From: Bacilli bacterium
GTDB lineage: Bacteria; Bacillota_I; Bacilli_A; RF39; UBA660
Length of the DNA: 64,000 nucleotides
Direction of reading: 5' to 3'
NCBI GenBank assembly: GCA_028694645.1
Contig: JAQVKM010000002.1
Location: 112,149 to 176,148 of the forward strand
A program made the position numbers and the translations under genes. The notes below the pieces were generated by a model. The model made no database searches. It had not been told where the DNA came from and worked only from the letters and a program-made list of their open reading frames with translations. Shown here piece by piece: positions 833-20,516 of this stretch (its first letter is position 1; each line of letters opens with the position of its first letter).

Positions 833-1553
833 AACAATCTTCATCGCATAGTATATCATAAACACCAGCTATACCATCTGTATATATTTCAATTAAATTA
901 TTTTTTTGTTCTTCTGTAAGTTCTATTGTTGGATCTTCTTGATCACTAACTGTTCCAATATGGACTTTTTTAATTTCCCCGTTTTTTACAAATACAACAG
1001 TTGGAAAATATAATCTTTTAATTGATTCATTATTTAATCCCTCATATATTCCTAAATAGTCTTTTAATAAATCAACTATTTGATAATATTCATCTGTTCC
1101 TTCTTTATCAGTAATAATATTTCCTTGTTCATCTAAATGTTTAATATCTCTAATATCATATGCATTATAATAATAGATTTTATCTACTCCAAATTCATAA
1201 GATGTATTTATGAGTGTTGAAATCATATTTCTACACCAAGGACATTCTGGAAATCCAAAATAAATAATTCCTGTTTTGTTTTTTAGTATATCAATAACTT
1301 CATATTGATCAATATATTCAATATTATTATCTTCAATAATATTTAAATTTAAATATTGATATCCTTTTTCACTATTTTTATTATTTAATGATTCGTATTC
1401 TTTTTTGAATTTAATTTCATCATCAGTATTTTTTTCTATAACTATTTTATTTCCTGTTGGCTTTAATGATTCATCACCTACAAAAGTATATATTAAATAA
1501 CTTGATAGTAAAAATACAATAAGTAATATTCCTAATTTAATCTTTGTTTTCAT
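831..1553 (-). CDS. membrane-anchored thioredoxin-fold protein (CPWC active site)
   Basis: N-terminal hydrophobic anchor, FGFPECPWCRN CxxC motif, terminal CDEDC. Start moved to ATG 1553, which follows GGAGGT by 5 nt. Clear paralog of 53661..54368. Confidence 0.7.
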   Translation of the reverse strand: MKTKIKLGILLIVFLLSSYLIYTFVGDESLKPTGNKIVIEKNTDDEIKFKKEYESLNNKNSEKGYQYLNLNIIEDNNIEYIDQYEVIDILKNKTGIIYFGFPECPWCRNMISTLINTSYEFGVDKIYYYNAYDIRDIKHLDEQGNIITDKEGTDEYYQIVDLLKDYLGIYEGLNNESIKRLYFPTVVFVKNGEIKKVHIGTVSDQEDPTIELTEEQKNNLIEIYTDGIAGVYDILCDEDC

Positions 1554-2376
1554 TTTTACCTCCATCATAATCATCTAAAAAATGATAAGTTTGTTCTTCT
1601 TTGTGATATCCAATGATTGTTGATAAATTAACATTACACATACTTCTAAAAATATTAATATCGACATTTGGATTAATTGTTTTTAAATTTTTAATTAATT
1701 CTTTTATTTCTTTTCTTTTTGAATTGTTTTCAAATTGACTTTTCTCTGTAAAAGAACAAGCACAATTTAAAAATGATAAATCGTTAGATATTGTCCATGT
1801 TATTATATCTTTTTCTTTAATTAAATAAAGAGGTCTTATAAGTTCCATATTTTTAAAATTGGTACTATGCAATTTTGGCATCATTGTTTTGAATTCAGCT
1901 CCATACAACATACTCATTAAGGTTGTTTCAATAACATCATCAAAATGATGTCCTAAAGCTATTTTATTACAATTTAATTCTTGAGCTTTATTGTATAAAA
2001 AGCCTCTTCTCATTCTGGCACATAAATAACATGGACTGTCATCAACATTATTAACAACATTAAATATATCACTTTCAAATATATGTATTGGTATATTCAA
2101 TATATTAGCATTATCAATTATCTTTTTTTTATTTGCTTCATTATATCCTGGATCCATAACAATGAATTCTAAATCAAAGTTGATTTTTCCGTGTAATTTT
2201 AATTCCTGCATTAACTTAGCTAATAACATAGAATCTTTTCCACCAGATATGCAAACTGCTATCTTATCATTTTCATTTATCATTTTATATTCTTTAACAG
2301 CTTTTACAAATTTACTCCATATCTCTTTACGATATTTTTTTATAATGCTGCGCTCTATTTCTTCATATCTTTTCAT
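1537..2376 (-). CDS. ttcA: TtcA-family PP-loop ATPase (tRNA 2-thiocytidine synthetase-like)
   Basis: SGGKDS PP-loop plus PCYLCARMRRG, the CxxCxRxRRG hallmark of TtcA. Overlaps the downstream gene by 17 nt. Confidence 0.8.
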   Translation of the reverse strand: MKRYEEIERSIIKKYRKEIWSKFVKAVKEYKMINENDKIAVCISGGKDSMLLAKLMQELKLHGKINFDLEFIVMDPGYNEANKKKIIDNANILNIPIHIFESDIFNVVNNVDDSPCYLCARMRRGFLYNKAQELNCNKIALGHHFDDVIETTLMSMLYGAEFKTMMPKLHSTNFKNMELIRPLYLIKEKDIITWTISNDLSFLNCACSFTEKSQFENNSKRKEIKELIKNLKTINPNVDINIFRSMCNVNLSTIIGYHKEEQTYHFLDDYDGGKNENKD

Positions 2377-2404
2377 AACATCACACGTTCATTATATCAT
2401 GAAA

Positions 2405-2426
2405 AAACTACTTTTAAAAGTAGTTT
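2405..2426 (-). terminator. intrinsic terminator after the giant pilin-like gene
   Basis: Palindrome AAACTACTTTTAAAAGTAGTTT followed on the minus strand by a TTTC tail, about 55 nt downstream of the stop at 2483. Confidence 0.55.
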
Positions 2427-2482
2427 ATCAATTTCTATAGTGAATAATAAAATTTAAGTCATCAGTATTTCAATAAATTATT

Positions 2483-5400
2483 TTAGACAGATAATTCATA
2501 TATTCTGACACTTGTAGATCCATATCCACTTCTAATTTCTAAATATATTCGTATATATGCAGTATTTTCTGGTATTGTGTAAGCTTTACTTTCTCTAATA
2601 TATGTCGAACTTATTAATGTGTTACTTGAATTATAAGCATTCATAATTATTTTAGTATAATCACTAGAATATGCTCTTTGAGAGTATACATTCAAATTAA
2701 CATTTTTATTATACATTGAAGAATCAACTGCAACATAATAATTTTTTGTGTAACAAATATTTGTATCTGATCCTGAGCCACAAGTAGTGCCTACATATGT
2801 TAAAGTATTATTATCAAATGCCTCCATAGTTAAGGAATTTGCTCTATCTGTTGCGCTATAAGTGGATATTCTAGTCATTACATTATTCTTATCATACCCT
2901 CTTGCCAATAAATTTTGACCTGAAGCAAGTTTAAATGTTTGATTTAAGTAATTATGCCATGTTGTTCCACCATCTAAACTATATTGTTTAACAACAGAAG
3001 TTTTATGATAACTTAAAGATACATTTGTATACGCTGAATTCACCCCTGAATTTGTAATAGCAGGAAAGTATTGTGTTGCATTAAATATTGGATCATTATA
3101 AACAGATAATTCATATATTCTAACACTTGTTAATCCATAACCACTTCTAATTTCTAGATGAATTTGTAGATATGCAGTATTATCTGGTATTGTGTAGGTC
3201 CCGCTTTCTCTAATATATGCTGAGTTTATTAATGTATTAGATGAATTATAAGCCGAAATAATTATTTTAGTATAATCATTAGAATATGCTCTTTGGGAGT
3301 ATACATTCATATAAATTTTTTCATTATACATCGAAGAATCAACCGCAACATAGTAATCTTTTGAATAACAAATATTTGTATCTGATCCTGAGCCACAAGT
3401 AGCACCTACATATGTTGAATTATCTCCGTCATATGCCTCAGGAGTTAAAGAATTAGCTCTATCTATTGCATTATAAGTAGCTAATTTAGTCATTATATTA
3501 TTTTTATCATAACCTTTTGCCAGTAACTTTTTCCCTGAAGCAAGTTTAAATGACTGATTCATGTAATTATACCATGTTATTCCTTCATCCAAACTATACT
3601 GCTTTATAATAGATGTTTTATTATAATTTAAAGATACATTTGTATACGCTGAATTCATTCCTAAATTTGTAATAGTAGGAAAATATTGTGTTGCATTAAA
3701 TGTTGGTTCATTATAAACAGATAATTCATATATTCTAACGCTTGTAGCTCCATAACCACTTCTAATTTCTAGATGAATTTTTAAATATGTGGTATTCTCT
3801 GGTATTGTATAATTTCCAGTTTCTCTAATATATGTTGTGTTTAGTAATGCATTAGCTGAATTATAGGCATAAACAACTACTTTAGTATAATCGTTATAAT
3901 ATGCTCTTTGAGAATAGATATTCATATTAATTTTTTGGTTATACATTGAAGAATCAACATTGATAAAGTAATCTTTTGAATAACAAATATTTGTATCTGA
4001 TCCTGAACCACAAGTAGCACCTACATATGTTGAAGTATCACCATCATAACTTGCAATTGGTAAAGCATTTGCTGGTTGACTATTTGCTTTAGTTGACGAT
4101 ACAAACAGACCAGAATCATTTTTTACGCTTTTTGCATATATTGTATTCGTTTTAGAAGCATCAAATGCGCCAGTATAAATATTCCAATTTACTCCATCTA
4201 AACTATAATAATTAGTTATATCATTTCTTTGGTCATATTCAATAGTTGTTTTTCCATCAACACCTATACCATATATTGAAATAACCGCATTTCCATAATT
4301 TGATGTAATAACCGGTGCCTCAATTTTTGTTACATCAAGATTCAATATTTTCTTGCACGTTTTTGTTACATTACCAACAGCATCAGTTCCTTGTCCACAT
4401 ACAGTTACTGTTCCATCACTGTTTTCAAGTTTGTTAGAAAGAACATAACTTGATGATAAAGCAAAATCACTTGTATAATTTGTCCAAGGAATAGTATTAG
4501 CTCCTATTTTATATTGTCTTATAGTAGCATCCCCAAAATCCATTGATACTGTTACATTTGTTGTTAATTCTAATGGAACTGCTGTTATTACTACCTCTGG
4601 AGCATTTGAATCTATATTATCCACGGTTAGTGTATAAGTTTTAGTATTTCCGGCATAATCACTAGCATAAAAAGTGTAGGTTCCATTTTGTGTCAATTTA
4701 ACAGTACTGTTATTAGGTATGGAATTGCCATTTGTTTCAAAATAACTAGCACCTTTAAGCCCAATGTCATACATAACATTACTTAATTTTACGTCATCTG
4801 TTGCTGTTACCAAAACTGAAACTGATTTAGTTATAGTTTCTAAATCAGCTGTTAATTTAATAACTGGGGATTTCTCATCAATATTTTTAATAATATATTT
4901 TGCATCTAATGACCAAACTTCAGATGCATTTTGGCTTCTTGCATATATAATTGCATTATTCTTATCAACTAAGAATGGATTTTCATATTTTAACCAATCT
5001 GTTTTTGTGCCATCTGAATATGCTATCATATATTGTTTTTTTCTTAATGTTCCGGGATAGTCTATTGATATTTTAACTTCTTTACTTGGTTCTGTTGTAT
5101 CAGCAACAATTGTAGGTGAAGCTGGTTTTTCAGCTGCAAATCTCATGTATATATCATTTGCTATTTCTGAAGTTGCACTTGTTAAAATATAATAATCACC
5201 ATTAAATTCAATTTCTTTGCCCGTTTCATCTTTTATTTTAATTATTGAATTATTTAATATTTCTGATCCCTGTTCTACAAGTAAAATTCCATCATCCTTA
5301 TATAATTTCCATGTTCCATCTTCTTTATACTTATACTCCCAGGTTCCTCTGCTTGCATTTTCAGGATAATTTAATTTAATTATATAGTATTTTCCCATAT

Positions 5401-7510
5401 TAAGTATATAAACTGGTGGTTTAGCACTAATATTATCTATTTTTTTAGAAACAGTTTCTGACTGCTCTAATATATTTATATTTTGTGCGTACACAACTGT
5501 ATTTTCTGTTACAGTAAATGGTCCTGTATAAGTTGACCAATTACCATCCCCAATTTTATATTGACTTAAAAACGAATTTTTATCAAAAGAAATGCTTACA
5601 TCTGCACTATAAGTATTACTATTAACAGTTATAATTGGCTCAGATATTCCAGTAGTTAAATAATCAATTTTTTTATATGCACTTCCTCTTGCTATATCAT
5701 TTTGAGCATATGCATATACTGTACTATTTTCTTCTAAAACAAATGGTTCTGTATATTTTATCCAATCTCCAAACTGACCTATTTTATAATATTTTTCAGT
5801 AGCTCTTGAATCATATGTTATTGATACAGTTGTAGAGTCTACTAAAGAAACATCATCTTCTGGAGTAGCTAATATTGATACTGCTAGACTATATGGTTTA
5901 AAAACTGATGGGCTAGGAAGTCCATTTTTTGCATCCCCTATATTAGTAATTGCTAAAGAATCTTCTCTTGTCCCAAATTCATTTTTAGCTCTTGCATATA
6001 CCGTTAAATTGTTTTTTATCAAAAAAGTGCCTGTATAATTTTTATAATTTATTCCATCTAAACTATATTCTACCGTATCTGCCGTACTTTCATACGAAAT
6101 ACCTATTCTAACACTGTCAGTTAAAAAACTATTTTTAGATGGATATGGGTTTGCATCAATTTTAATGTATGGTGCTTTACCAGAATCAGAACTTCCCCCA
6201 CTACAGTCTTTTATATTTCTTATTTTATAAGTTTCTACCATTGATTGAGTTCCATCGACATCATCTTTGATATAATATGTAGAAATAGCTACATTTGATG
6301 TTATCGTAAATGGTTGTGTATATTTTTTATAACTTCCTGTTCCTATTTTATAATATATTACTCTTGCAGCTTGTGATGTTGTTAAATTTACTTTTACAGA
6401 ATCACAAGTCAGATTATTATTATCTATTGTCAAATATGGACCTATTGTTTCTGCACGATAAGGAAGTAAATTTGTTATTCTCTCTGGAGTTGATGACTGA
6501 CTAACAGGTGGATAGCTCATTTCTGTAATTGATCCACTATCTACTTTACATGAGTCGTTATCTTCACAGCTAGTTAATATTTTTTCATCATATGGTCTTA
6601 TATAAACACTATCATATACTGTTTTTGTTCTTTGTGTTAATATATTTCCTGTAGAATCATATACATTTTCTCTTATTCTTAATTTTGCTGATATAACAGT
6701 TGATTCTTCAACTATAAATTCATTGATATAATCAGTCCATCCATTATTACCTATCATATACTGTATAGATTCTAAATTAGCTGTACTATAGTTTAATTTT
6801 ACAGTTATTTTATCTCCTGTTTTATAAGTATAACTACTTGGTTCAATATCTACGTATGCTCCATTTCCTGATATAACAGTTGTTCCATCAGGAAGTTTAT
6901 ATTTTATAAATACATCTTCAATTCTATCTAGTGGTATTGTGATTGATCCTTCATAATCTTGCCAACTTTCTTGGCCCTCCGTTCTTATATCCCCTCTTGC
7001 ATCTAAACGCCATTTTTTTTCTATTGCATTATCTGGGTAATACAAAGTTAATTTTATCCAACCATCCCATATATTTCCAGATTCAATATTCCCAATTCCT
7101 ATTGAACAATCATCTCTTTCATATGTAGATGGAAGTGCCATAATTTTAGATGTATTATAATTTTTAATTATACATCTACGCAATGATTCACTCCATAATG
7201 CAAGAGTTGAATTGCCCGTTTTCTTAAGTATTACAATTCCACCATCTGGTTTTTTTCCTTTAAATGATAATTGATTCTTATAATCATCAAAAGAAACTGT
7301 TACATTATCTGTAACTGTATTATACAATAACTGATTCACATAATAATTTTCTGCAGCATCTAATATTCCATATCCTGTTTGAATGAAAGCATTTAATCGT
7401 GCCTTATTAATTATGCCAATTATAAAAGGAACAACTACTAATGAAAAAATGGTTATAACTACAATAACAGCTAAAAGTTCTAGTAAAGTAAATCCTTTTT
7501 TTCTTTTCAT
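2483..7510 (-). CDS. giant modular surface protein with type IV prepilin N-terminal cleavage/methylation leader
   Basis: MKRKKG-FTLLELLAVIVVITIF is a class III signal peptide with Gly-1, Phe+1 and Glu+5. It is followed by at least 10 Ig-like modules with a Y-K-I-G-x-G-x-W-x-x-Y-T-x-P-F type signature. Three C-terminal repeats carry CGSGSDTNICY. Confidence 0.85.
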   Translation of the reverse strand: MKRKKGFTLLELLAVIVVITIFSLVVVPFIIGIINKARLNAFIQTGYGILDAAENYYVNQLLYNTVTDNVTVSFDDYKNQLSFKGKKPDGGIVILKKTGNSTLALWSESLRRCIIKNYNTSKIMALPSTYERDDCSIGIGNIESGNIWDGWIKLTLYYPDNAIEKKWRLDARGDIRTEGQESWQDYEGSITIPLDRIEDVFIKYKLPDGTTVISGNGAYVDIEPSSYTYKTGDKITVKLNYSTANLESIQYMIGNNGWTDYINEFIVEESTVISAKLRIRENVYDSTGNILTQRTKTVYDSVYIRPYDEKILTSCEDNDSCKVDSGSITEMSYPPVSQSSTPERITNLLPYRAETIGPYLTIDNNNLTCDSVKVNLTTSQAARVIYYKIGTGSYKKYTQPFTITSNVAISTYYIKDDVDGTQSMVETYKIRNIKDCSGGSSDSGKAPYIKIDANPYPSKNSFLTDSVRIGISYESTADTVEYSLDGINYKNYTGTFLIKNNLTVYARAKNEFGTREDSLAITNIGDAKNGLPSPSVFKPYSLAVSILATPEDDVSLVDSTTVSITYDSRATEKYYKIGQFGDWIKYTEPFVLEENSTVYAYAQNDIARGSAYKKIDYLTTGISEPIITVNSNTYSADVSISFDKNSFLSQYKIGDGNWSTYTGPFTVTENTVVYAQNINILEQSETVSKKIDNISAKPPVYILNMGKYYIIKLNYPENASRGTWEYKYKEDGTWKLYKDDGILLVEQGSEILNNSIIKIKDETGKEIEFNGDYYILTSATSEIANDIYMRFAAEKPASPTIVADTTEPSKEVKISIDYPGTLRKKQYMIAYSDGTKTDWLKYENPFLVDKNNAIIYARSQNASEVWSLDAKYIIKNIDEKSPVIKLTADLETITKSVSVLVTATDDVKLSNVMYDIGLKGASYFETNGNSIPNNSTVKLTQNGTYTFYASDYAGNTKTYTLTVDNIDSNAPEVVITAVPLELTTNVTVSMDFGDATIRQYKIGANTIPWTNYTSDFALSSSYVLSNKLENSDGTVTVCGQGTDAVGNVTKTCKKILNLDVTKIEAPVITSNYGNAVISIYGIGVDGKTTIEYDQRNDITNYYSLDGVNWNIYTGAFDASKTNTIYAKSVKNDSGLFVSSTKANSQPANALPIASYDGDTSTYVGATCGSGSDTNICYSKDYFINVDSSMYNQKINMNIYSQRAYYNDYTKVVVYAYNSANALLNTTYIRETGNYTIPENTTYLKIHLEIRSGYGATSVRIYELSVYNEPTFNATQYFPTITNLGMNSAYTNVSLNYNKTSIIKQYSLDEGITWYNYMNQSFKLASGKKLLAKGYDKNNIMTKLATYNAIDRANSLTPEAYDGDNSTYVGATCGSGSDTNICYSKDYYVAVDSSMYNEKIYMNVYSQRAYSNDYTKIIISAYNSSNTLINSAYIRESGTYTIPDNTAYLQIHLEIRSGYGLTSVRIYELSVYNDPIFNATQYFPAITNSGVNSAYTNVSLSYHKTSVVKQYSLDGGTTWHNYLNQTFKLASGQNLLARGYDKNNVMTRISTYSATDRANSLTMEAFDNNTLTYVGTTCGSGSDTNICYTKNYYVAVDSSMYNKNVNLNVYSQRAYSSDYTKIIMNAYNSSNTLISSTYIRESKAYTIPENTAYIRIYLEIRSGYGSTSVRIYELSV
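2486..4075 (-). repeat. in-frame tandem repeat, period 615 nt (205 aa), about 2.6 units, inside the giant gene
   Basis: The motif CAAATATTTGTATCTGATCCTGA recurs starting at 2754, 3369 and 3984, exactly 615 nt apart. The protein units align over their full length (AYDGD.STYVGATCGSGSDTNICYSKDYY...RIYELSVYN...). Confidence 0.9.
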
Positions 7511-7511
7511 A

Positions 7512-7904
7512 CTAATAATCCTTTTCTATATAAAATTCTACATTTTTAATGTTACTGTAATCCCCAACTATACCAATAGATAAAGTTTGATAGTTTTCAT
7601 TATCAAGATTTTCTATTACTTGTTTTAATTTTTTCACTTCTTTTCCATTATCATCCTTCAATATTATCGAGATTATAAAATTTTTATTTTCTTCATTATT
7701 ATTATTAATTTTTGCTGTTAAAGTTGTTATGCTTCCTTCATAAATAAGTTTTATATCTGTGACAACTAAATCTTCTACTACTACATCATTTTTTGCTTTA
7801 TTTTCTTCTATTATTGTCTTATTAGTTAATTTTTTTTCACAACCACATCCCGTAATAATAAACAACGCTAAAAAAATCAATACAAATTTAATCATTTTTT
7901 TCAT
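7512..7904 (-). CDS. small lipoprotein, unknown function, coupled to the giant pilin-like gene
   Basis: MKKMIKFVLIFLALFIITGC lipobox. AAGGAG RBS before ATG 7904. Its stop codon lies 1 nt from the downstream start at 7510. Confidence 0.7.
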   Translation of the reverse strand: MKKMIKFVLIFLALFIITGCGCEKKLTNKTIIEENKAKNDVVVEDLVVTDIKLIYEGSITTLTAKINNNNEENKNFIISIILKDDNGKEVKKLKQVIENLDNENYQTLSIGIVGDYSNIKNVEFYIEKDY

Positions 7905-8184
7905 ATAAACTCCTTTTAATAACATACTATCGTATTACACTATTATATTATTAATTATAATTTATTTGTTGTTTAATGTCAATTAATCAAATATGTAATT
8001 ACAATAATGTTAATTTTCTTTACCTTAAAAATAATAACTTTAATTCTATAATGAATAATTTTAATATTATCTATTTTACTATTTAAAAAGGTAATACTAC
8101 TATTTTCCTATATAATTATAACAAAAAAAATAGACACAATTTTTAGGTGTCTACTTTTATTATAAATACACAATTTTGTATTAA

Positions 8185-8874
8185 CTATTTTTGTTTTATA
8201 TAATTTATATAATAATTTATTTTATCTGCCCAAGTTGTACTCTCGGCATATTTTGAATTAATAGCTTCTGGGGTTGTTAATCCTACTTTATAATAATTAT
8301 TATAAAGATTTTCTAAGTAACTATTAATTCCTTCTTCCAATGTATTAAAAGCTTTATAAGATCCCCCATTACATCCTGGACTTCCTTTGATTCCACCAAC
8401 ATTATTACAAGCATTAACTAAATTACTGCATTCCCATGTACATCCAGTTTCATGTAATACAATAGATACAGCTAAATAAGGATCTAATCCTAATTCAAGT
8501 GATTTACTTGCAAATAAATATCCTGTATTTGACAATGTTGAATTAAGTGATCTGTTTAGTTTGTCAGTTAATTCATTTAATGTCATGTTATCATAAACGA
8601 TTGGTTCTACAATTACTTCCTCAACCACTACCTCTTTTGGTTCTTCAGTTTGATTATTAGTTTCCTCAACCACTTTATCTTCTACTAAAGCAGTTATTGA
8701 AGAGACTATACTTTCTTTTATAAGAATATCATTTGTATATGATACACTTTCTAATGTTTTTGTATGATTTGTAGCATTAGCTTCTTTATTTATCAATACC
8801 GAAATTAATACCACAACAATAATTCCAATTATAACCTTTGCCGTGAGCGGCACGTCTATTTTCACCTTTTTCAC
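8185..8874 (-). CDS. membrane-anchored glucosaminidase-domain peptidoglycan hydrolase (LytD/FlgJ-type)
   Basis: N-terminal TM segment. C-terminal ...LAVSIVLHETGCTWECSNLVNACNNVGGIKG...YKAFNTLEEGINSYL fits the mannosyl-glycoprotein endo-beta-N-acetylglucosaminidase pattern. The start may be the second GTG at 8865, which has better GAGGTG spacing. Confidence 0.6.
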   Translation of the reverse strand: MKKVKIDVPLTAKVIIGIIVVVLISVLINKEANATNHTKTLESVSYTNDILIKESIVSSITALVEDKVVEETNNQTEEPKEVVVEEVIVEPIVYDNMTLNELTDKLNRSLNSTLSNTGYLFASKSLELGLDPYLAVSIVLHETGCTWECSNLVNACNNVGGIKGSPGCNGGSYKAFNTLEEGINSYLENLYNNYYKVGLTTPEAINSKYAESTTWADKINYYINYIKQK

Positions 8875-8983
8875 CTCTTACTTTTTTTGGCGGAAAACAT
8901 ACAGAATTCTATCACATTTTTTTTTACAAGTCAAATTGACTTTATGGGTCATAATATTTATAATATATATCAGGGAGGGTAAA

Positions 8984-9373
8984 ATGGAAAAGAATATTAA
9001 CTATAACATCATTGCAATGTTTATTTCTCTAGCTAAAAAAAGATGTATTTATGAGTTATCAATTCATGAAATTCATGAAAATTTTAAAATTATGAAAGAA
9101 AATCCTAAATTTAAAGGTATTCTTGATAAATATAATTTTGAGCAATCACAATACTCTGAAGAAATTAATTATGAACTTGCTAATTTGCTTGCATTTAAGA
9201 AGCTAATATATACAGAAAATAAAAAATTTGTTTTTAATAATATAGATGACGAATTTGAAGATATATTATTTTTAAATGTTGATAAAAATGTAATAGCAAC
9301 AATACACGAAATGATTAATGAATTTGTAATTATTAACACATTTAAAAATCAAAAACAATTAATAAAAGCTTAA
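8984..9373 (+). CDS. hypothetical protein (129 aa)
   Basis: ATG 8984 is preceded by the GGGAGGG RBS. The upstream part of track ORF 8843.. has no RBS. Confidence 0.6.
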   Translation: MEKNINYNIIAMFISLAKKRCIYELSIHEIHENFKIMKENPKFKGILDKYNFEQSQYSEEINYELANLLAFKKLIYTENKKFVFNNIDDEFEDILFLNVDKNVIATIHEMINEFVIINTFKNQKQLIKA

Positions 9374-9432
9374 TAATGGTTAATCCATTATTTTTATTTT
9401 AACCAAAAATAAAAAATAATTACTAAAAGTAA

Positions 9433-9705
9433 TCATTTATTTGTATTATTGTAATAATTGTATTCTGATATTAAGTTAGATAGATACTCCAAATCATCTA
9501 ATTCATCATAAGAATCATTTAACACATCTTCTATTTTAAAAATAAGTTCATTTATATTAAAACAAATTTCATAATTAATCTCATATTTATTTAATATCTC
9601 AATATGTTCATCACTTAAAAATATATTATTTCCTCTATCTTTTAAAATAACTTTATCAACATCAATTATATTATCTATTAATATTTCTTTTTGATTTATT
9701 ATCAT
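9433..9705 (-). CDS. small acidic hypothetical protein
   Basis: ATGA overlap with the ynbB stop suggests translational coupling. No recognisable motif. Confidence 0.5.
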   Translation of the reverse strand: MIINQKEILIDNIIDVDKVILKDRGNNIFLSDEHIEILNKYEINYEICFNINELIFKIEDVLNDSYDELDDLEYLSNLISEYNYYNNTNK

Positions 9706-10937
9706 TTTTCACCTTTTAGATATTTTATTGCACTAATAAGTCCTAATTTACCATAATCATATGTTAATCCCCCTTGTTGATAAGCAATATAGGGTTTTCT
9801 AATAGGTCCATCGCAAGATAATTCTATTGATGAGCCTTGTGTAAATGCTCCCGCTGCCATTATAACTTTATCATCGTAACCTGGCATATCCCATGGTTCT
9901 GGAATTGCATTTGCATCAATAGGTGACCCAGCCTGAATTCCTTTACAGTAATTAATTAAATCTTGCTCATTATTAAATTCTATACTTTGAACTATGTCAC
10001 ATCTATTGTCATTATATTTTGGTTCTACTTTGTAACCTAAGTTTTCTAAAACTTTTGATGTTAAAATAGAAGTCTTAAGTGCGCTAGCTACAACACTTGG
10101 TGCTAAAAAGAATCCTTGTAAAAGGCTTTTATTTATTCCTAAACTAGGTCCAACTTCTTTTCCCTCACCAGGTAGTGTCAAACGCTCAGAAGCAAGATTA
10201 ACCAATTCTTTTTTTCCAACTATATATGCACCATTTGGAGCTATCCCCCCACCTAAGTTTTTAATTAATGATCCGACTATTAAATCTGCTTTAAATGGTA
10301 TTTCTAATGGTGTTTTGTTTTCTACAAATTCACAATAACAATTATCTATCATAATAATAACTTCATTATCGACTTCTCTTATTTTTTCTATAACATTGTT
10401 TAACTTTTCTAAATCAATACTTTTTCTATTTGAATATCCCTTAGATCTTTGTATTTGAATAACTTTGATTTTTTTCAATAGTAAGGTTTCAATTATTTTA
10501 TTTATATCAAATTCATTATCAATTAAATCTATTTGTTCATAATTAATGTTATATGATTTTAAAGAACTTGGATTTTCTTTTATTCCTATTACTTCGTGTA
10601 ACGTATCATAAGGAGTTCCTGTTATGCAAAGTAGTGTATCATTAGGTCTTAAAAGAGAAAACAAAGCTACTGTTAGAGCATGCGAACCTGATATAAATTG
10701 ACTTCTAACTAAAGCATCTTCTCCACCTAAAACTTGCGCAAAAATTTTTTCAATAGCGTCTCTTCCCATATCAGAATAGCCATATCCTGTAGTACTATTA
10801 AAATGTATTTCACTTATATTATTATTGTGAAATGCATTCAAAACCTTAGTACTATTTTCAAAACAAATTTCATCTATTTTTTCAAATTCGTTTCTAATTT
10901 CTTGCTCTGCTTGTTTTATTAATTTATTAATTTCCAT
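9702..10937 (-). CDS. ynbB: YnbB / aluminium-resistance family PLP-dependent enzyme (Met gamma-lyase-like)
   Basis: The N-terminal ...NAFHNNNISEIHFNSTTGYGYSDMGRDAIEKIFAQVLGGEDALVR and the overall length are typical of the family. Confidence 0.8.
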   Translation of the reverse strand: MEINKLIKQAEQEIRNEFEKIDEICFENSTKVLNAFHNNNISEIHFNSTTGYGYSDMGRDAIEKIFAQVLGGEDALVRSQFISGSHALTVALFSLLRPNDTLLCITGTPYDTLHEVIGIKENPSSLKSYNINYEQIDLIDNEFDINKIIETLLLKKIKVIQIQRSKGYSNRKSIDLEKLNNVIEKIREVDNEVIIMIDNCYCEFVENKTPLEIPFKADLIVGSLIKNLGGGIAPNGAYIVGKKELVNLASERLTLPGEGKEVGPSLGINKSLLQGFFLAPSVVASALKTSILTSKVLENLGYKVEPKYNDNRCDIVQSIEFNNEQDLINYCKGIQAGSPIDANAIPEPWDMPGYDDKVIMAAGAFTQGSSIELSCDGPIRKPYIAYQQGGLTYDYGKLGLISAIKYLKGEK

Positions 10938-11510: not shown

Positions 11511-12599
11511 TTAACTATTTTTAGTACCTTGTTTTTTATTATAATCTTTTTTCTTTAAAACAAATAAATACACGATTTCATCTTTTATTACATAAAAGCT
11601 TGTTTCTTTTGTATCTTCAAATTCCATAATTGGTGAAGATAAATTAGCAGCTAAATTCAGTAATTCTTCAAAACTTATAATTGAAATAACTTTCAATTTT
11701 TTTGTATCAATCATACTATTTGTTAAAACTAAAATTTCACTATAATCACTTTTAATTTTATCTAATTTTTCCTCATAATTTATTAATTCTTTATATTCTT
11801 GTAATTTCTTAACAATTAATAAAGACATTACTAATGAGAATATAAAACCTACTACATAAATACCAATTATTGTAATTTTAATTTCTGACAATTTTTTATT
11901 TTCTAAAAGTAAATAACCATTATCTTCTATATTTTCACTTTGATTAACAAAGAAAACTTTGTCTTCTACATCTATTTTAGCTGATAAAACATATTTTTTT
12001 GATAAAGAATATGTTCCATCATCACCATATATAGTTATTGGCATTTCTATTTTAATATAAGAAATTGTTGGTATTTGAAAATATTCAACAAAATCCATAA
12101 TTTCAGTAATATATTTTCTAACATCAATTGAAAATGTTTCAGTTAATGATAATGTTGAATTATTAGAACTAACAATACCTGTATCTTCTTTAATAACATA
12201 TTCTTTATTCCATAAAACAGGATTATTTTCACTGGTAGGGTCTTCATTATAAAGTCCATATAAAGTGGCTTTTATTCCATATTGATAATTAATCGGCAAC
12301 GATATTTCTGATGTTAAATCATATTTAAAAGTAAAATCAATATTTTTAGTAATACTTGTTATATATGATCTATCAGAAGATAATAAAGTTTCTTTTATAA
12401 ATTTATTATCATCAACACCAACATTATAAGATATTGAACTAACACTTACATATTTTTTTTCATTATTTTGTTTATTTTCAATGAAAAAATTTAATAAACC
12501 ATAACAATTAAATATCAAAAACAATAAAACTATAACAAGTAAAATAATTAATCTGTTTTTATTTAACAAAGTTTTTTTTGTTACTTTTTTTGTTGCCAT
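11511..12599 (-). CDS. two-TM membrane protein, DUF5305-like accessory protein of SipW loci
   Basis: N-terminal TM, about 200-aa extracytoplasmic domain, second TM (IIGIYVVGFIFSLVMSLLIV), about 100-aa cytoplasmic tail. Its start abuts the sipW-like stop. The family name is from recall. Confidence 0.45.
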   Translation of the reverse strand: MATKKVTKKTLLNKNRLIILLVIVLLFLIFNCYGLLNFFIENKQNNEKKYVSVSSISYNVGVDDNKFIKETLLSSDRSYITSITKNIDFTFKYDLTSEISLPINYQYGIKATLYGLYNEDPTSENNPVLWNKEYVIKEDTGIVSSNNSTLSLTETFSIDVRKYITEIMDFVEYFQIPTISYIKIEMPITIYGDDGTYSLSKKYVLSAKIDVEDKVFFVNQSENIEDNGYLLLENKKLSEIKITIIGIYVVGFIFSLVMSLLIVKKLQEYKELINYEEKLDKIKSDYSEILVLTNSMIDTKKLKVISIISFEELLNLAANLSSPIMEFEDTKETSFYVIKDEIVYLFVLKKKDYNKKQGTKNS

Positions 12600-12600
12600 G

Positions 12601-13578
12601 TTAATTCCCCGTTTCTACTTCAACATTATCATCATCTGATAAAAATTCTTTAATTAATATAGTTGGATACCCCATCTTAGGAATAATTCCTATCAATTTA
12701 CCTAAAACTTGATTTTGCTTAACACTAAGATTATCTCTTGAACTATTATTATCACCTTTAGTTATTAATATTTTCTCATATTTGCTAGTTGTTTGTATAT
12801 CAATTACTCTATGTATTACTTTTATCTTATTTAAATTATATACTATTACATCTCCAATTTCAATATCATTATAATTTATTTTACTATATATAACAACATC
12901 ACCTCTATTAATTGCAGGAGCCATACTTCCTGTTAATATTACAACAGGTTTAACTGGATAGAAACCAGATGTAAAAAAGGTTATTAATGTAATAAATAAA
13001 ATAAATATTGTAAATTTTGTTTTTTCAAATCCAGAAAATCTTTCTTTTATATTAAATTTAATATAACTAAAATAATCTTTTTCTATTTTAAAATAAACAA
13101 ATAATGGTACTATTGAACTTATTATACATATAATAGCATAATTATTAGTTGGAAATACTGGAGTTAAAAGATATATAATAATAAATGGTAATTTATATAA
13201 TAAAGAAGAAATTATACCTTCTCTATAAATAAGATAACTTAAAAATAAATTCATTATCAGTGATGGAAAAAAATATTTTAACAAAAAAATGACCATCACC
13301 GAACTACTATTAAATGCTCCTGAAAAATTTTCAATACCGATATTTACAATCGTAAATAATATTGTTATTAATACTATATTAGTATATCTTTTGTTTTCTT
13401 GTGAAGATTTTATATAACTTGATCTTATAATTTCTTCTGTTATAGCTATAACTATAAGTGATAGTCCATTTAATAAAACACCAGCAAATGAGTGGTCTAA
13501 AGGACTATTTGAATAACCTATTATTAATCCTACTAAATAATACATAATAATGTATATTAAAGATCCAATTAATGCCAT
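12601..13578 (-). CDS. sipW: SipW-type (ER/archaeal-type) signal peptidase I fused to an N-terminal polytopic membrane domain
   Basis: The C-terminal 130 aa carry TGSMAPAINRGD (Ser), IHRV (His) and KGDNN boxes. The preceding 190 aa or so are multi-pass membrane. Confidence 0.75.
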   Translation of the reverse strand: MALIGSLIYIIMYYLVGLIIGYSNSPLDHSFAGVLLNGLSLIVIAITEEIIRSSYIKSSQENKRYTNIVLITILFTIVNIGIENFSGAFNSSSVMVIFLLKYFFPSLIMNLFLSYLIYREGIISSLLYKLPFIIIYLLTPVFPTNNYAIICIISSIVPLFVYFKIEKDYFSYIKFNIKERFSGFEKTKFTIFILFITLITFFTSGFYPVKPVVILTGSMAPAINRGDVVIYSKINYNDIEIGDVIVYNLNKIKVIHRVIDIQTTSKYEKILITKGDNNSSRDNLSVKQNQVLGKLIGIIPKMGYPTILIKEFLSDDDNVEVETGN

Positions 13579-13593
13579 TTGTCTTAATGCTTT

Positions 13594-13788
13594 TTAATCT
13601 GGGTTATTTATTTCATATTTTTTTCTTATAAATACAAAAGCGATAGCAGCTAAAGAAAAAAAGATAAGGGGTTTAAATAAATATTGATAAGGATTTTTCC
13701 CTACAGCTTCAATTAAAATTTTTGGAATAAACAAAAATATTATAAACAATGATATTATTGATATCCATTCAAATAATTTTCTACTCAT
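13594..13788 (-). CDS. small two-TM membrane protein
   Basis: Two hydrophobic helices. It overlaps the upstream stop by 1 nt and lies 15 nt upstream of the sipW-like gene. Confidence 0.5.
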   Translation of the reverse strand: MSRKLFEWISIISLFIIFLFIPKILIEAVGKNPYQYLFKPLIFFSLAAIAFVFIRKKYEINNPD

Positions 13789-14369
13789 TAATTCACTATA
13801 ATAATATAATAAAAGTATTGTGTAACTCCATTAGCTACATACTTTAGTCGAACTTGCATTTTAATAACAGTTGTCAAACTAGTTCTTAATCTAGCTGTTA
13901 CAGTCAATTTACCAGTTGAATAAGCAGCTATAGAAGTAGCACTTAAAGTTGAAGCTAAATTACTAACATTAGATCCACCAGTAACTGTTGTATTTGTTCT
14001 TGTTCCACTTGTTAAAGTATATGGATATGGATTTTTAAAATTAATAACAAAAGTACAATTAACATAACTGGTATATCTTCTTGTTCGTGTAAAAGTTAAT
14101 GTTAAATAATTGTCTTCTAATACCTCACTAGTTAGCGAAGCAAAAGTAGTAGGAAAAGTTCCACTTGTATAAGTAGCTCCTCCTGTACCACTAGCTGTTA
14201 AATTAAGATTTAAAGCATTACCACTAACTACATATTTAGCTACAGCTGTTCCATTAATACTTAAAGATTCACTAAAAATACTATAACCTACACTAGTAGT
14301 TATTATTATTAATAATAAAGATATTATCCAATAGCTTTTTTTATATTTCTTTCTTCTTATTTTTTTCAT
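13788..14369 (-). CDS. secreted TasA/camelysin-like protein with SipW-cognate-type signal peptide (divergent paralog C)
   Basis: Basic N-terminus, TM, then GYSIFSESLSINGTAVA. Thr/Ser/Asn-rich beta-type body. Confidence 0.5.
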   Translation of the reverse strand: MKKIRRKKYKKSYWIISLLLIIITTSVGYSIFSESLSINGTAVAKYVVSGNALNLNLTASGTGGATYTSGTFPTTFASLTSEVLEDNYLTLTFTRTRRYTSYVNCTFVINFKNPYPYTLTSGTRTNTTVTGGSNVSNLASTLSATSIAAYSTGKLTVTARLRTSLTTVIKMQVRLKYVANGVTQYFYYIIIVN

Positions 14370-14390
14370 AAATAACCCCTTAACTCAATT

Positions 14391-14415
14391 AAAGCCACAT
14401 TTAAAATGCGGCTTT
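14391..14415 (-). promoter_or_regulatory. intercistronic stem-loop between paralog B and paralog C
   Basis: AAAGCCACA-tttaaaa-TGCGGCTTT (9-bp arms with one mismatch). There is no strong T-tail. Confidence 0.4.
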
Positions 14416-14425
14416 AAATTAATTA

Positions 14426-14929
14426 CTAAACTGTTTGTTGATAATTCAATGTTGCTGTAAATGTTACATTTTTATTAGCCACTGTAGAACTTGTAGCCCA
14501 TGCTACTGTTATATCAAATGTATAAGTTTCATTTGGTGCTAAAACAACACCTGTTGGCCATGTTGGATATGTTACTGTTACATCTGAATCGTTGTTTCCA
14601 GTAACATTAACACTTAATAAATTAGCATCGATATTACCAGTATTTTTAACTGTTACACTAATAACAGCATTTGATCCTGGTTTAGCTAAATCAGGTACTG
14701 ATATAGTTAATCCATTTTTATCTGTTGATATTGTTGAAGTTGGTGTACATCCTGTTGCAGATGTAATTGATGTAGCTGAAAATTGTACATCAAATATACC
14801 TGTTGTTACAGCTGTACCATTAATATTTAATGCTTCACTAAATATTGCATAACCTATTGTCATTGTAAATAATATTGCACATAATGATATTATTACATAA
14901 ACTCTACTATTTTGTTTTTTCTTTTTCAT
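14426..14929 (-). CDS. secreted TasA/camelysin-like protein with SipW-cognate-type signal peptide (paralog B)
   Basis: ...TMTIGYAIFSEALNINGTAVTTG..., closely similar to paralog A along its whole length. Confidence 0.55.
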   Translation of the reverse strand: MKKKKQNSRVYVIISLCAILFTMTIGYAIFSEALNINGTAVTTGIFDVQFSATSITSATGCTPTSTISTDKNGLTISVPDLAKPGSNAVISVTVKNTGNIDANLLSVNVTGNNDSDVTVTYPTWPTGVVLAPNETYTFDITVAWATSSTVANKNVTFTATLNYQQTV

Positions 14930-14943
14930 TTAAACTCCTCTTT

Positions 14944-15453
14944 CTATATTGACTGTTCATAATTTAATTTTGCACTAAAAGTTATACTTTTATTACTACT
15001 TGTTGAATTTGTATTCCAAAACACAGAAATACTAAATGTATAAGTGTCTCCTGGTTGTAATAATATACCTGTTGGCCATTCAGGATATGTAATGTTAATA
15101 TCTGAATCATTATTTCCAGTAACAACTACATTTAATAAATTAGCTGTTACATTTCCAGTATTTTTAACAATTACACTTATTATTGCTCCAGATCCTGGTG
15201 TTTTTAAATCAGGTACCGATATAGTAATTCCATTCTTATCTGTTGATATTGTCGAAGTTGGTGTGCAACCATTTGATGAAACAATTGAACTAGCTAGAAA
15301 TTCAACATTGAAGTTCCCGCTTGTTACGGCTGTACCATTAATGTTCAATGATTCACTAAATATAGCATACCCAGCTGCTAATGAAAATATAGCAACAAAT
15401 AATATTATAATAAAATATACTTTATTATTTTGTTTTCTAATTTTTTGTTTCAT
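14944..15453 (-). CDS. secreted TasA/camelysin-like protein with SipW-cognate-type signal peptide (paralog A)
   Basis: ...LAAGYAIFSESLNINGTAVTSG..., first gene of the cluster, 14 nt upstream of paralog B. Confidence 0.55.
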   Translation of the reverse strand: MKQKIRKQNNKVYFIIILFVAIFSLAAGYAIFSESLNINGTAVTSGNFNVEFLASSIVSSNGCTPTSTISTDKNGITISVPDLKTPGSGAIISVIVKNTGNVTANLLNVVVTGNNDSDINITYPEWPTGILLQPGDTYTFSISVFWNTNSTSSNKSITFSAKLNYEQSI

Positions 15454-15598
15454 TAAAACCTCCTATATCTTGTATACATCATATCAAGAATAAAATAAAA
15501 TTACAATATTATTTACATTTCACTTTACACACGATATATTTCAATACAATTTACTTTAATATATTACTTATGATAAACTAATATTGATGAGGTGACCT

Positions 15599-19421: not shown

Positions 19422-20516
19422 TTAATCTAAATAAATTAATTTTTTTTCTTTTTTTAATATACAAAAAAGAAATATTATAATTGGTAAAATAACTTGAATA
19501 GGTATTGCATAAATACCAAATATTGGTGCAAAATCAAATAAATCTACAACATTATCAAATAAAAAAGGGCATATCCCAAGCATTAATAAAGATACTGGAA
19601 AAATAGTTTTTGTATAATCTTTATTTTTGGTTAAATAAGCTACTCCTTTAGATAAAGATATAATAAATATAGTTATTTTAACGATTCCTGCTAATACAAA
19701 ATTAATTGTAATTAAACCCTCTACTCTTGTTAAAAACTCCCCTAATTGTAATATTCTTGTTGCTTGATAAGAGGCAAAAAAAGAATCTTTTAATAAAGGT
19801 ATTCCTATAACAGTAATATTTCTAATTAATATTAAATCTAATATAATACCTGTGAAAATAATTCCTTTTAAATATGTTTTTGATGGATTTTTAAAATCAA
19901 ATAAATCAGCAATTCCAAGCATTACTATTAATTCTGAAAAAGGTAACATGAAGACTTTAAAAGAAGACTTAAAAATTGAATTGATGGAATGGTTTAAAAT
20001 TGGTTTAATATTATCAAATTTAAATATAGAAAATGATAATATCAACGTTATTGAAATTGTTACCAATAATATTGCTAAAACAATATTGCCAAATATTCCA
20101 AGAGTTTTAATTTTACTTTTAGATAAATAAACTGATATTAGGATTAAACTCATCATTATAGGTAATAATGGTGTTTCAGATAATGTTGTTATCTCCACAT
20201 ATTCAGAAAAATTTCTCAAAACAATTGATCCCAAATATAAAATATGAATTAAAAACAAAGATATCAATATTTTAGCAGTCAATTTACCAAACAATATATC
20301 AATAATTTGATATATATTTTTTTGTGGGAATTTATTAATAATATATCCAAATATTAAAACTAGTGGAATATTAAAAACAAAGGATAGAATTAAGGATATC
20401 CATGCATCTTGGCCAATTTCAGAATTAATATCTATTCCTATTACAACACTACTTCCAAATAAAAAAAGGATTATTAAAACAATAATTTGTTTTTCTGTTA
20501 ATAACTGTTTATTCAT
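19422..20516 (-). CDS. spore germinant receptor B subunit (GerAB/GerKB family permease)
   Basis: About 10-TM APC-like protein with the family-typical N-terminus. It is the last gene of a gerA-type operon. Confidence 0.8.
   Translation of the reverse strand: MNKQLLTEKQIIVLIILFLFGSSVVIGIDINSEIGQDAWISLILSFVFNIPLVLIFGYIINKFPQKNIYQIIDILFGKLTAKILISLFLIHILYLGSIVLRNFSEYVEITTLSETPLLPIMMSLILISVYLSKSKIKTLGIFGNIVLAILLVTISITLILSFSIFKFDNIKPILNHSINSIFKSSFKVFMLPFSELIVMLGIADLFDFKNPSKTYLKGIIFTGIILDLILIRNITVIGIPLLKDSFFASYQATRILQLGEFLTRVEGLITINFVLAGIVKITIFIISLSKGVAYLTKNKDYTKTIFPVSLLMLGICPFLFDNVVDLFDFAPIFGIYAIPIQVILPIIIFLFCILKKEKKLIYLD

Follow-up and report, generated by a model that had tools for sequence, protein, structure and literature searches.

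Gene content of the locus

We analysed a 64-kb stretch of DNA from a Bacilli bacterium (GenBank assembly GCA_028694645.1, contig JAQVKM010000002.1; hereafter, the window), in which a compact row of genes on the minus strand, at positions 11511-15453, probably encodes an extracellular fibre system of the TasA superfamily. All six open reading frames (ORFs) listed in a preliminary description of this DNA were recovered at the positions given there (Table 1). Three consecutive genes, as that description had it, encode proteins rich in Ser, Thr, and Asn (hereafter, S1, S2, and S3), and they are followed by a signal peptidase I gene that is interrupted by a stop codon and by a gene for a DUF5305 protein. 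Spacing is tight, the S3 stop codon overlaps the start of the peptidase gene, and the flanks consist of unrelated housekeeping genes (a divergently transcribed HI0933-like flavoprotein, a Met_gamma_lyase-family protein, and an unassigned 154-aa ORF); therefore, the row is a compact operon of five genes, namely three subunits, the peptidase, and the DUF5305 protein. S1 is preceded by a strong GGAGG ribosome-binding site, and the Shine-Dalgarno sequence of S2 is likewise strong. Based on the sequence comparisons described below, we assign a probability of about 75% to the reading that this locus is an extracellular-fibre operon of the TasA superfamily resembling that of AbpX, a fibril protein of Pyrodictium abyssi.

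Table 1. Features of the window that are discussed in the text (positions counted from the first nucleotide of the window).
Feature	Position	Strand	Length	Remarks
Promoter-like site	15478-15506	minus		TTGTAA, 17-nt spacer, TG-TATGAT; 25 nt upstream of S1 start; low confidence
S1	15453-14944	minus	169 aa	predicted AbpX-like fibre subunit precursor, first gene
S2	14929-14426	minus	167 aa	second predicted AbpX-like subunit
RNA hairpin	14389-14417	minus		between S2 stop codon and S3 ribosome-binding site
S3	14369-13788	minus	193 aa	divergent, predicted AbpX-like paralogue
Dedicated signal peptidase I, whole interrupted gene	13788-12601	minus	~395 codons
Peptidase ORF, N-terminal piece	13788-13594	minus	64 aa
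In-frame TAA	13596-13594	minus		peptidase codon 65
Peptidase ORF, remainder	13578-12601	minus	325 aa
DUF5305 protein	12599-11511	minus	362 aa
Giant neighbour	2483-7510	minus	1,675 aa	type IV prepilin N-terminus
Glucosaminidase gene	8185-8874
Spore_permease-family gene	19422-20516

Three paralogous subunit precursors

The N-termini of S1, S2, and S3 comprise a Lys/Arg-rich start (the Lys-rich n-regions are MKQKIRKQNNK, MKKKKQNSR, and MKKIRRKKYKK), a hydrophobic segment of ~18 residues, and then GYAIFSESLNINGTAV, GYAIFSEALNINGTAV, and GYSIFSESLSINGTAV, respectively. The block G-Y-[AS]-I-F-S-E-[SA]-L-[NS]-I-N-G-T-A-V, which the preliminary description had singled out, follows the signal anchor in all three proteins. 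When a relaxed form of this motif was searched as a regular expression in the six-frame translation of the window, only three matches were returned, all in S1-S3 and starting 25-32 residues into the stop-to-stop reading frame. Judged by eye, the n-regions of S1-S3 do not contain the S/T-R-R-x-F-L-K consensus of twin-arginine translocation (Tat) signals.

Cleavage of S1 is predicted between AGYA and IFSE and would leave a mature protein of 139 aa with an isoelectric point (pI) of 4.4. The predicted mature S2 has a pI of 4.1, and that of S3 is basic (pI 9.75); Ser, Thr, and Asn together make up 37-40% of the mature parts. The proposed paralogy of the three subunits was borne out, with S1 and S2 sharing 65-66% identity and S3 being a distant paralogue (family profile E 6e-12; hhalign probability 97.6%) that carries the same signal and predicted donor-strand motif (see below), followed by a longer linker. 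Relatives of this locus keep the orthologous S1/S2 pair, and in them S3 is conserved as a protein of 191-195 aa.

Remote homology of the subunits to AbpX

A word-indexed search returned 13 close relatives of the subunits, and an exhaustive search by profile enlarged the family considerably (3,934 clusters at 50% identity with E ≤1e-3; 646 with E ≤1e-10). An alignment of 74 family members provided the profile used for comparison with PDB; its consensus is [VI]GYAxFS[DEQ]xLxIxGTA...GxFD...LxYPGAG......IKNxGxIPAKL...W...S...F...L.Y.Q. No dedicated Pfam or NCBIfam model matches the subunit family. Among 177,635 PDB sequences, the best match of the 74-member profile was AbpX of Pyrodictium abyssi (9sj2_C, E 1.3e-5; 9rhp_A, 2.5e-5), and a comparison of the family with the AbpX fragment by hhalign gave a probability of 95.8%, centred on the core motif YPGA...N.GtIPA. 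The corresponding value for TasA was 46%, with a weak common core motif (L.PGd....f.f.N.Gsl). We call the link to AbpX remote because single sequences give no PDB match and only the 74-member profile does: phmmer searches of the PDB sequences with S1 and S3 singly returned nothing significant. The profile of the S3 family had no match among the PDB sequences either. Weak matches within the 74 members involved Peptidase_M73 (PF12389; 3/74), the TasA model NF046066 (1/74), and TafF (1/74).

These comparisons support the assignment of the subunits to the AbpX-like proteins. A preprint of January 2026 describes these as a compact clade, occurring in Thermoproteota, Bacillota, and Chloroflexota, within the TasA superfamily, whose proteins form bundling pili and biomatrices (bioRxiv 10.64898/2026.01.04.697558). 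In the AbpX fibril solved by electron cryomicroscopy (cryoEM), the N-terminal strand W2-I12 completes the jelly-roll of the next subunit (donor-strand complementation), calcium is bound at the subunit interface, and the donor strand is reported to be unstructured in the monomer (bioRxiv 10.64898/2026.01.04.697558).

The predicted mature N-terminus of the window subunits, I1-F2-S3-E4-S5-L6-N7-I8-N9-G10-T11-A12, aligns with this strand. HMMER places S-E-T-L of AbpX (from chain residue 3) on S-E-x-L of the family, and in this register F2, E4, L6, I8, G10, and A12 of the window stand on W2, E4, L6, L8, A10, and I12 of AbpX, which the preprint lists as residues of the donor strand, with an aromatic residue at position 2, an acid at position 4, and hydrophobic residues at positions 6, 8, and 12 common to both. 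The cleavage site and the predicted donor strand together form one of the most conserved stretches among the 74 members (F in 57, L in 53, I in 55, G in 67, and A in 59), where conserved and variable positions alternate, a pattern that fits an amphipathic strand. Of the 68 members that bear the motif, 57 have F at position 2 and 34 have an acid (D or E) at position 4. Small residues at -3 and -1 (G-Y-A/S) are conserved and lie after the hydrophobic segment, and conservation runs ~20 residues beyond the predicted cleavage site.

In the AlphaFold2 models of the monomers, a signal helix is followed by a low-confidence N-terminal extension (residues 37-43 in S1 and 28-63 in S3) and then a beta-sandwich; the mean predicted local distance difference test score (pLDDT) was 76.6 for S1 and 70.3 for S3. 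The models agree with an unstructured donor strand and are compatible with, but not diagnostic of, donor-strand complementation.

A multi-spanning signal peptidase with an in-frame stop codon

The 325-aa ORF matches TIGR02228, the model for signal peptidase I of the endoplasmic reticulum (ER)/archaeal type (E 6e-26; 91 bits versus a cut-off of 52), and its best PDB relatives are human SEC11C and SEC11A (3e-26). The preliminary description had named a SipW-type peptidase, which holds in so far as the enzyme falls into the Ser/His, SEC11-like class that includes SipW. Orthology is another matter: the SipW equivalog NF046067 gave 51 bits versus a cut-off of 190, and on these scores the peptidase is not a SipW orthologue and belongs to the broader ER/archaeal-type Ser-His class. 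Catalytic-type Ser (GSMxP; GSMAP in the window), His (HRV), and Asp (GDN; GDNN in the window) residues are invariant in 28 homologues. According to hydropathy, about nine N-terminal hydrophobic segments precede the catalytic domain in the reconstituted protein.

This nine-segment transmembrane (TM) domain matches no Pfam family and has no solved sequence relative. In its fourth TM segment, one Glu and one Arg (E-E-x-x-R) are invariant across the 28 homologues, and the domain has conserved prolines. Two identities were considered for it, a CPBP-type (EExxxR) and an exosortase-type domain, and both were dropped because the motif is spaced EExxR and no His or Cys is invariant.

The 64-aa and 325-aa ORFs share one frame and are separated by a single TAA codon. 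They are one interrupted gene, and the 64 residues previously listed as a separate membrane protein make up TM segments one and two of the peptidase, cut off by this stop. In the closest relative, the metagenomic contig L004 (69% identical), the peptidase is encoded by one unbroken gene of 395 codons with Lys at the TAA position, and the five closest homologues are 393-396 aa long. Either the gene has a genuine nonsense mutation, or the TAA, which amounts to a single A-to-T difference, arose in assembly. Recoding was rejected because TAA is a normal stop in this genome, and in fact the commonest one: the 47 long ORFs of the window end in TAA (35), TAG (10), or TGA (two). Other contigs of this strain were sought to verify the TAA, and the only one found is 1 kb long and stops short of the peptidase.

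The stop codon raises the question of whether the locus is decaying or inactive in this strain, in which case processing would be blocked and the precursors would stay tethered to the membrane. We regard this as a serious possibility, if somewhat short of even odds; it concerns activity in this genome and not the kind of system encoded. Of 52 peptidase proteins returned by the search, the other 51 are unsplit (218-404 aa) and the window's is the sole 325-aa form. The closest homologue has Lys where codon 65 is TAA here, and the in-frame ATG five codons after the TAA has no obvious Shine-Dalgarno sequence in front of it. On the other hand, the locus shows no other damage: apart from the TAA, each of the five genes has its full length, and the peptidase retains its catalytic Ser, His, and Asp. 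Coupled re-initiation at that ATG is conceivable and would yield seven TM segments with the catalytic domain, and the single-base difference could stem from assembly or sequencing.

The DUF5305 protein and conservation of the gene order

The 362-aa ORF belongs to DUF5305 (PF17231; E 3e-12, 46.9 bits versus a cut-off of 29). Its hydrophobic segments (residues 9-41 and 237-267) agree with the two-TM protein with a large ectodomain described previously, and its layout is a TM segment, an ectodomain of ~195 aa, a second TM segment, and a cytoplasmic tail of ~95 aa. In haloarchaeal tafi loci, the DUF5305 protein TafG has been proposed as a helper of the peptidase TafD (PMC12337348); by analogy, the window protein is a putative TafG-like accessory subunit of the signal peptidase.

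Related loci were sought with the closer 13-member alignment. At least five other genomes show the same order of subunit(s), multi-TM peptidase, and DUF5305, namely the metagenomic contigs L001 and L004, the Bacilli bacterium metagenome-assembled genomes (MAGs) L007 (twice) and L014, and L015, a MAG labelled uncultured Mycoplasma sp. Peptidase identity ranges from 28 to 69%, and the DUF5305 gene lies directly downstream of the peptidase gene in all of them. Thus, the gene set is conserved together in these genomes, the co-occurrence that the preliminary description had named as a check.

L007 carries two pairs of peptidase and DUF5305 genes (1058-3178 and 8207-10367) within 14.5 kb, one of them downstream of a triplet resembling S1/S2/S3. 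Bacilli/'Mollicutes' MAGs also encode longer proteins (446-662 aa; L008, 7001-8989; L009, 5651-6991; L011, 6998-8890) that begin with this signal and a GYAIFSESLNI[SG]G[ST] motif, with no peptidase or DUF5305 gene within 7 kb of them; possibly they are tip adhesins processed in trans, or multi-domain substrates. The MAG CASDZZ01 contains at least five long genes with the motif.

Comparison with known fibre systems

Known abpX loci carry genes for a structurally distinct signal peptidase I with ten TM segments, for a DUF5305 accessory protein, and for minor subunits resembling AbpX as well as tip or anchor proteins; in Clostridium amylolyticum, AbpX is accompanied by two minor subunits together with the peptidase and a DUF5305 protein (bioRxiv 10.64898/2026.01.04.697558). 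The window locus resembles them in several respects. AbpX (PDB 9SJ2, 9RHP) is its best solved sequence relative, with the donor-strand register and the core motif YPGx...N.G..pA in common; mature subunits have ~140-165 aa, with an acidic pI in S1 and S2; a multi-TM, TIGR02228-type signal peptidase I gene and a DUF5305 gene adjoin; and there are extra AbpX-like, putative minor subunits, as in Clostridium amylolyticum. It differs in the basic S3, the premature stop in the peptidase gene, the lack of an adjoining anchor gene, and the host, a bacterium of ~23% GC.

With tapA-sipW-tasA of Bacillus subtilis, the locus shares a private ER-type Ser-His peptidase and, presumably, a beta-sandwich subunit whose freed strand complements the next (for TasA fibres, see Bohning et al. 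2022, as cited in PMC12337348). In contrast, the window subunits are about half the size of TasA and are unmatched by Peptidase_M73, the TasA equivalog, and TIGR04088; some nine additional TM segments precede the catalytic domain of the peptidase; and a DUF5305 protein is found instead of TapA. The haloarchaeal tafi system (TafA/C/E pilins, TafD peptidase, TafG DUF5305 protein) produces bundling pili of the TasA superfamily by donor-strand complementation (PMC11821415, PMC12337348). It is similar in pairing a peptidase with a DUF5305 protein and in having several pilin paralogues, whereas most tafi pilins carry Tat signals rather than the Lys-rich Sec-type anchors of the window, and the host belongs to another domain. 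BsaA of Clostridium perfringens represents a Firmicute SipW-dependent matrix/pilus family that is encoded beside its peptidase; the window subunits are unmatched by its model (TIGR04090, 'BsaA family SipW-dependent biofilm matrix protein').

The preliminary description had proposed a TasA-kind fibre locus, possibly distinct from tapA-sipW-tasA. The AbpX match, the peptidase, the DUF5305 protein, and synteny in other genomes support this proposal, with AbpX as the closest system and fibre assembly as predicted by homology. The accessory genes had further been taken to point to a new system; because such genes are already known from abpX loci (bioRxiv 10.64898/2026.01.04.697558) and tafi loci (PMC12337348), this one is not of a new kind. 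What is peculiar to this locus are the subunits low in acidic residues, the basic third paralogue without a cell-wall anchor gene, and the peptidase gene split by a nonsense codon.

Donor-strand fibres of the TasA superfamily (TasA, AbpA, threads, tafi, AbpX) are an emerging, cross-domain mode of building biofilm matrix, and the compact AbpX-type module of small subunits, a multi-TM SEC11-like peptidase, and DUF5305 would reach into very AT-rich, uncultured Bacilli and lineages labelled 'Mollicutes'. The subunit family (~3,900 clusters at 50% identity) has no Pfam or NCBIfam model, so its genes are annotated as hypothetical, and a family model would label thousands of matrix/pilus genes in metagenomes. 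A minimal set of three subunits without a cell-wall anchor would also be useful for studying fibre nucleation and attachment.

Proposed mechanism

The basic n-region and the ~18-residue hydrophobic anchor seen in the sequences show that S1-S3 are made as precursors. The multi-TM Ser-His signal peptidase I, helped by the DUF5305 protein, would cut after G-Y-A/S, as suggested by the alignment with the mature N-terminus of AbpX, and cleavage would free the amphipathic strand I1-A12. By homology with the AbpX cryoEM fibril, the freed strand would enter the open beta-sandwich groove of a neighbour to give a non-covalent fibre. S1 and S2 are the likely bulk subunits (first in the operon, acidic, and ahead of the hairpin), and S3, a basic and divergent paralogue whose linker is longer but whose predicted donor strand is the same, may be a minor terminal subunit acting as cap, nucleator, or surface anchor. 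With the peptidase broken at codon 65, the system is perhaps crippled here; this would not hold if the stop arose in assembly or if re-initiation yields an active 325-aa enzyme.

A more specific version of this model is speculative, and we hold it to be rather unlikely as a whole: the locus would be an anchor-less, calcium-independent AbpX variant of very low-GC uncultured Bacilli, in which S1 and S2 co-polymerise, S3 nucleates or tethers the fibre electrostatically in the role of TapA or of an LPXTG/S-layer homology (SLH) anchor, and the nine-TM domain of the peptidase serves as an assembly platform.

Points against the AbpX-like reading and alternative explanations

Several observations weigh against the assignment to AbpX-like fibres, in addition to the split peptidase gene. 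The link to AbpX covers ~90 of the 168 profile positions, and hhalign aligns only 30 columns. Of the models named as checks in the preliminary description, DUF5305 matched its gene; Peptidase_M73 and TIGR04088 failed to match the subunits. Single-sequence searches of S1-S3 returned nothing specific, with weak matches (CARDB, DUF7507, and an UpsA-type Ig domain) but no match to Peptidase_M73, TasA (NF046066), or BsaA (TIGR04090) at E ≤1, nor did the subunit N-termini match TIGR04090 at E ≤10. TIGR04088, a 34-position model of the SipW-cognate signal, was unmatched by the full proteins at E ≤1 and by the N-terminal 60 residues of S1 and S3 at E ≤10, with TasA as the positive control (38 bits, E 1.2e-9); the earlier identification of SipW-cognate signal peptides is therefore abandoned.

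Composition is a further discrepancy. The AbpX subunit is acidic, with a pI of about 4 and about 15% Asp+Glu (bioRxiv 10.64898/2026.01.04.697558). S1 and S2 have 6.5% Asp+Glu versus 12.4% for the family median and 14.6% for AbpX, although they resemble the family in pI (4.1-4.4; median 4.35). The acceptor-side calcium ligands are not evidently kept: D18, D46, D48, and E52 of AbpX align with N, T, S, and N of S1 in the HMMER alignment, which is uncertain near an indel. E4 is retained in the window subunits. Calcium-triggered assembly may thus not apply to them, with the caveat that the alignment at the ligand positions is uncertain.

Structural searches were also unfavourable. TasA and AbpX were absent from the top 50 Foldseek matches of the AlphaFold2 monomers in PDB, which were generic Ig-like sandwiches (adaptin ears, CEP192, and Fn3-like domains of subtilases). 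The long signal helix and the moderate pLDDT probably impaired these searches, and AbpX entries that postdate the structural library may be a second reason. We infer donor-strand polymerisation of S1-S3 by homology; the AlphaFold2 models are of single chains.

Generic sandwiches of this kind would also be expected if S1-S3 were non-polymerising, Ig-like (CARDB-like) surface or secreted proteins whose N-terminal block served only as a recognition site for the peptidase, and the Pfam matches, which are weak (CARDB, DUF7507, and HYDIN-Ig), point the same way. We consider this improbable. Conservation extends ~20 residues past the cleavage site, alternates, and lies in the donor-strand register of AbpX, which exceeds what a peptidase would need; the N-terminal segment is of low confidence and unpacked in the monomer models; the solved structure matched best is that of a donor-strand fibril protein; and filament systems typically have more than one paralogous subunit per locus.

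That S1-S3 are type IV pilin-like subunits, archaeal or Gram-positive, which retain the hydrophobic helix as filament core, is very improbable in spite of the long N-terminal helix before the beta-sandwich in the AlphaFold2 models, weak UpsA pilin matches (E 0.0025), low-ranked Foldseek matches to Sulfolobus AAP and Pyrobaculum type IV pili, and a true type IV prepilin gene 4 kb away: the subunits have neither the class III signal motif nor the N_methyl match found in that giant neighbour, their small -3/-1 residues come after and not before the hydrophobic segment, the locus encodes a signal peptidase I and no prepilin peptidase, assembly ATPase, or platform protein, and the Foldseek superpositions on pilins are poor (TM-score 0.26-0.29, root-mean-square deviation >12 A).

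Regulatory features and genomic surroundings

The hairpin between S2 and S3 has a 13-bp stem (-17.4 kcal/mol, z -4.7). It is kept in the closest relative (L004, at about 2240-2268) with a swap of G.U to U.G and is absent in L007. We propose it as a candidate attenuator or mRNA stabiliser that would control how much of the major subunits is made relative to the minor one. The promoter-like site upstream of S1 is given low confidence because such sites are not commoner than in shuffled sequence: a consensus scan for promoters and terminators in this AT-rich window found 45 promoter-like sites versus 49 expected.

Within the window, no LPXTG or SLH anchor, sortase, histidine kinase, or cyclic di-GMP (c-di-GMP) gene adjoins the operon, and the ORFs scanned next to the locus include no GGDEF gene. 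In L004, a GGDEF-domain protein (7711-9756) is encoded ~2.5 kb downstream of the locus, which recalls the c-di-GMP genes that have been reported in the vicinity of abpX loci of bacteria.

The preliminary description had also noted the nearness of a giant pilin-like adhesin. This neighbour has a type IV prepilin N-terminus (MKRKKGFTLLE, with the predicted cleavage between G and FTLLE; N_methyl 4.5e-6) and belongs to another export route, unrelated to the signal-peptidase-I locus. Its proximity is uninformative because it depends on prepilin peptidase and is separated from the operon by housekeeping genes. The C-terminal third of the protein contains three repeats of ~190 aa each (YDGD.STYVGATCGSGSDTNICY ... 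VRIYELSVYN).

The host relatives are MAGs of uncultured Bacilli or 'Mollicutes'. Spore_permease-family and glucosaminidase genes in the window (Table 1) suggest that the host is not a true mollicute but a Firmicute that has a cell wall and possibly forms spores. GC content in the window is 19-31% per 2-kb bin.

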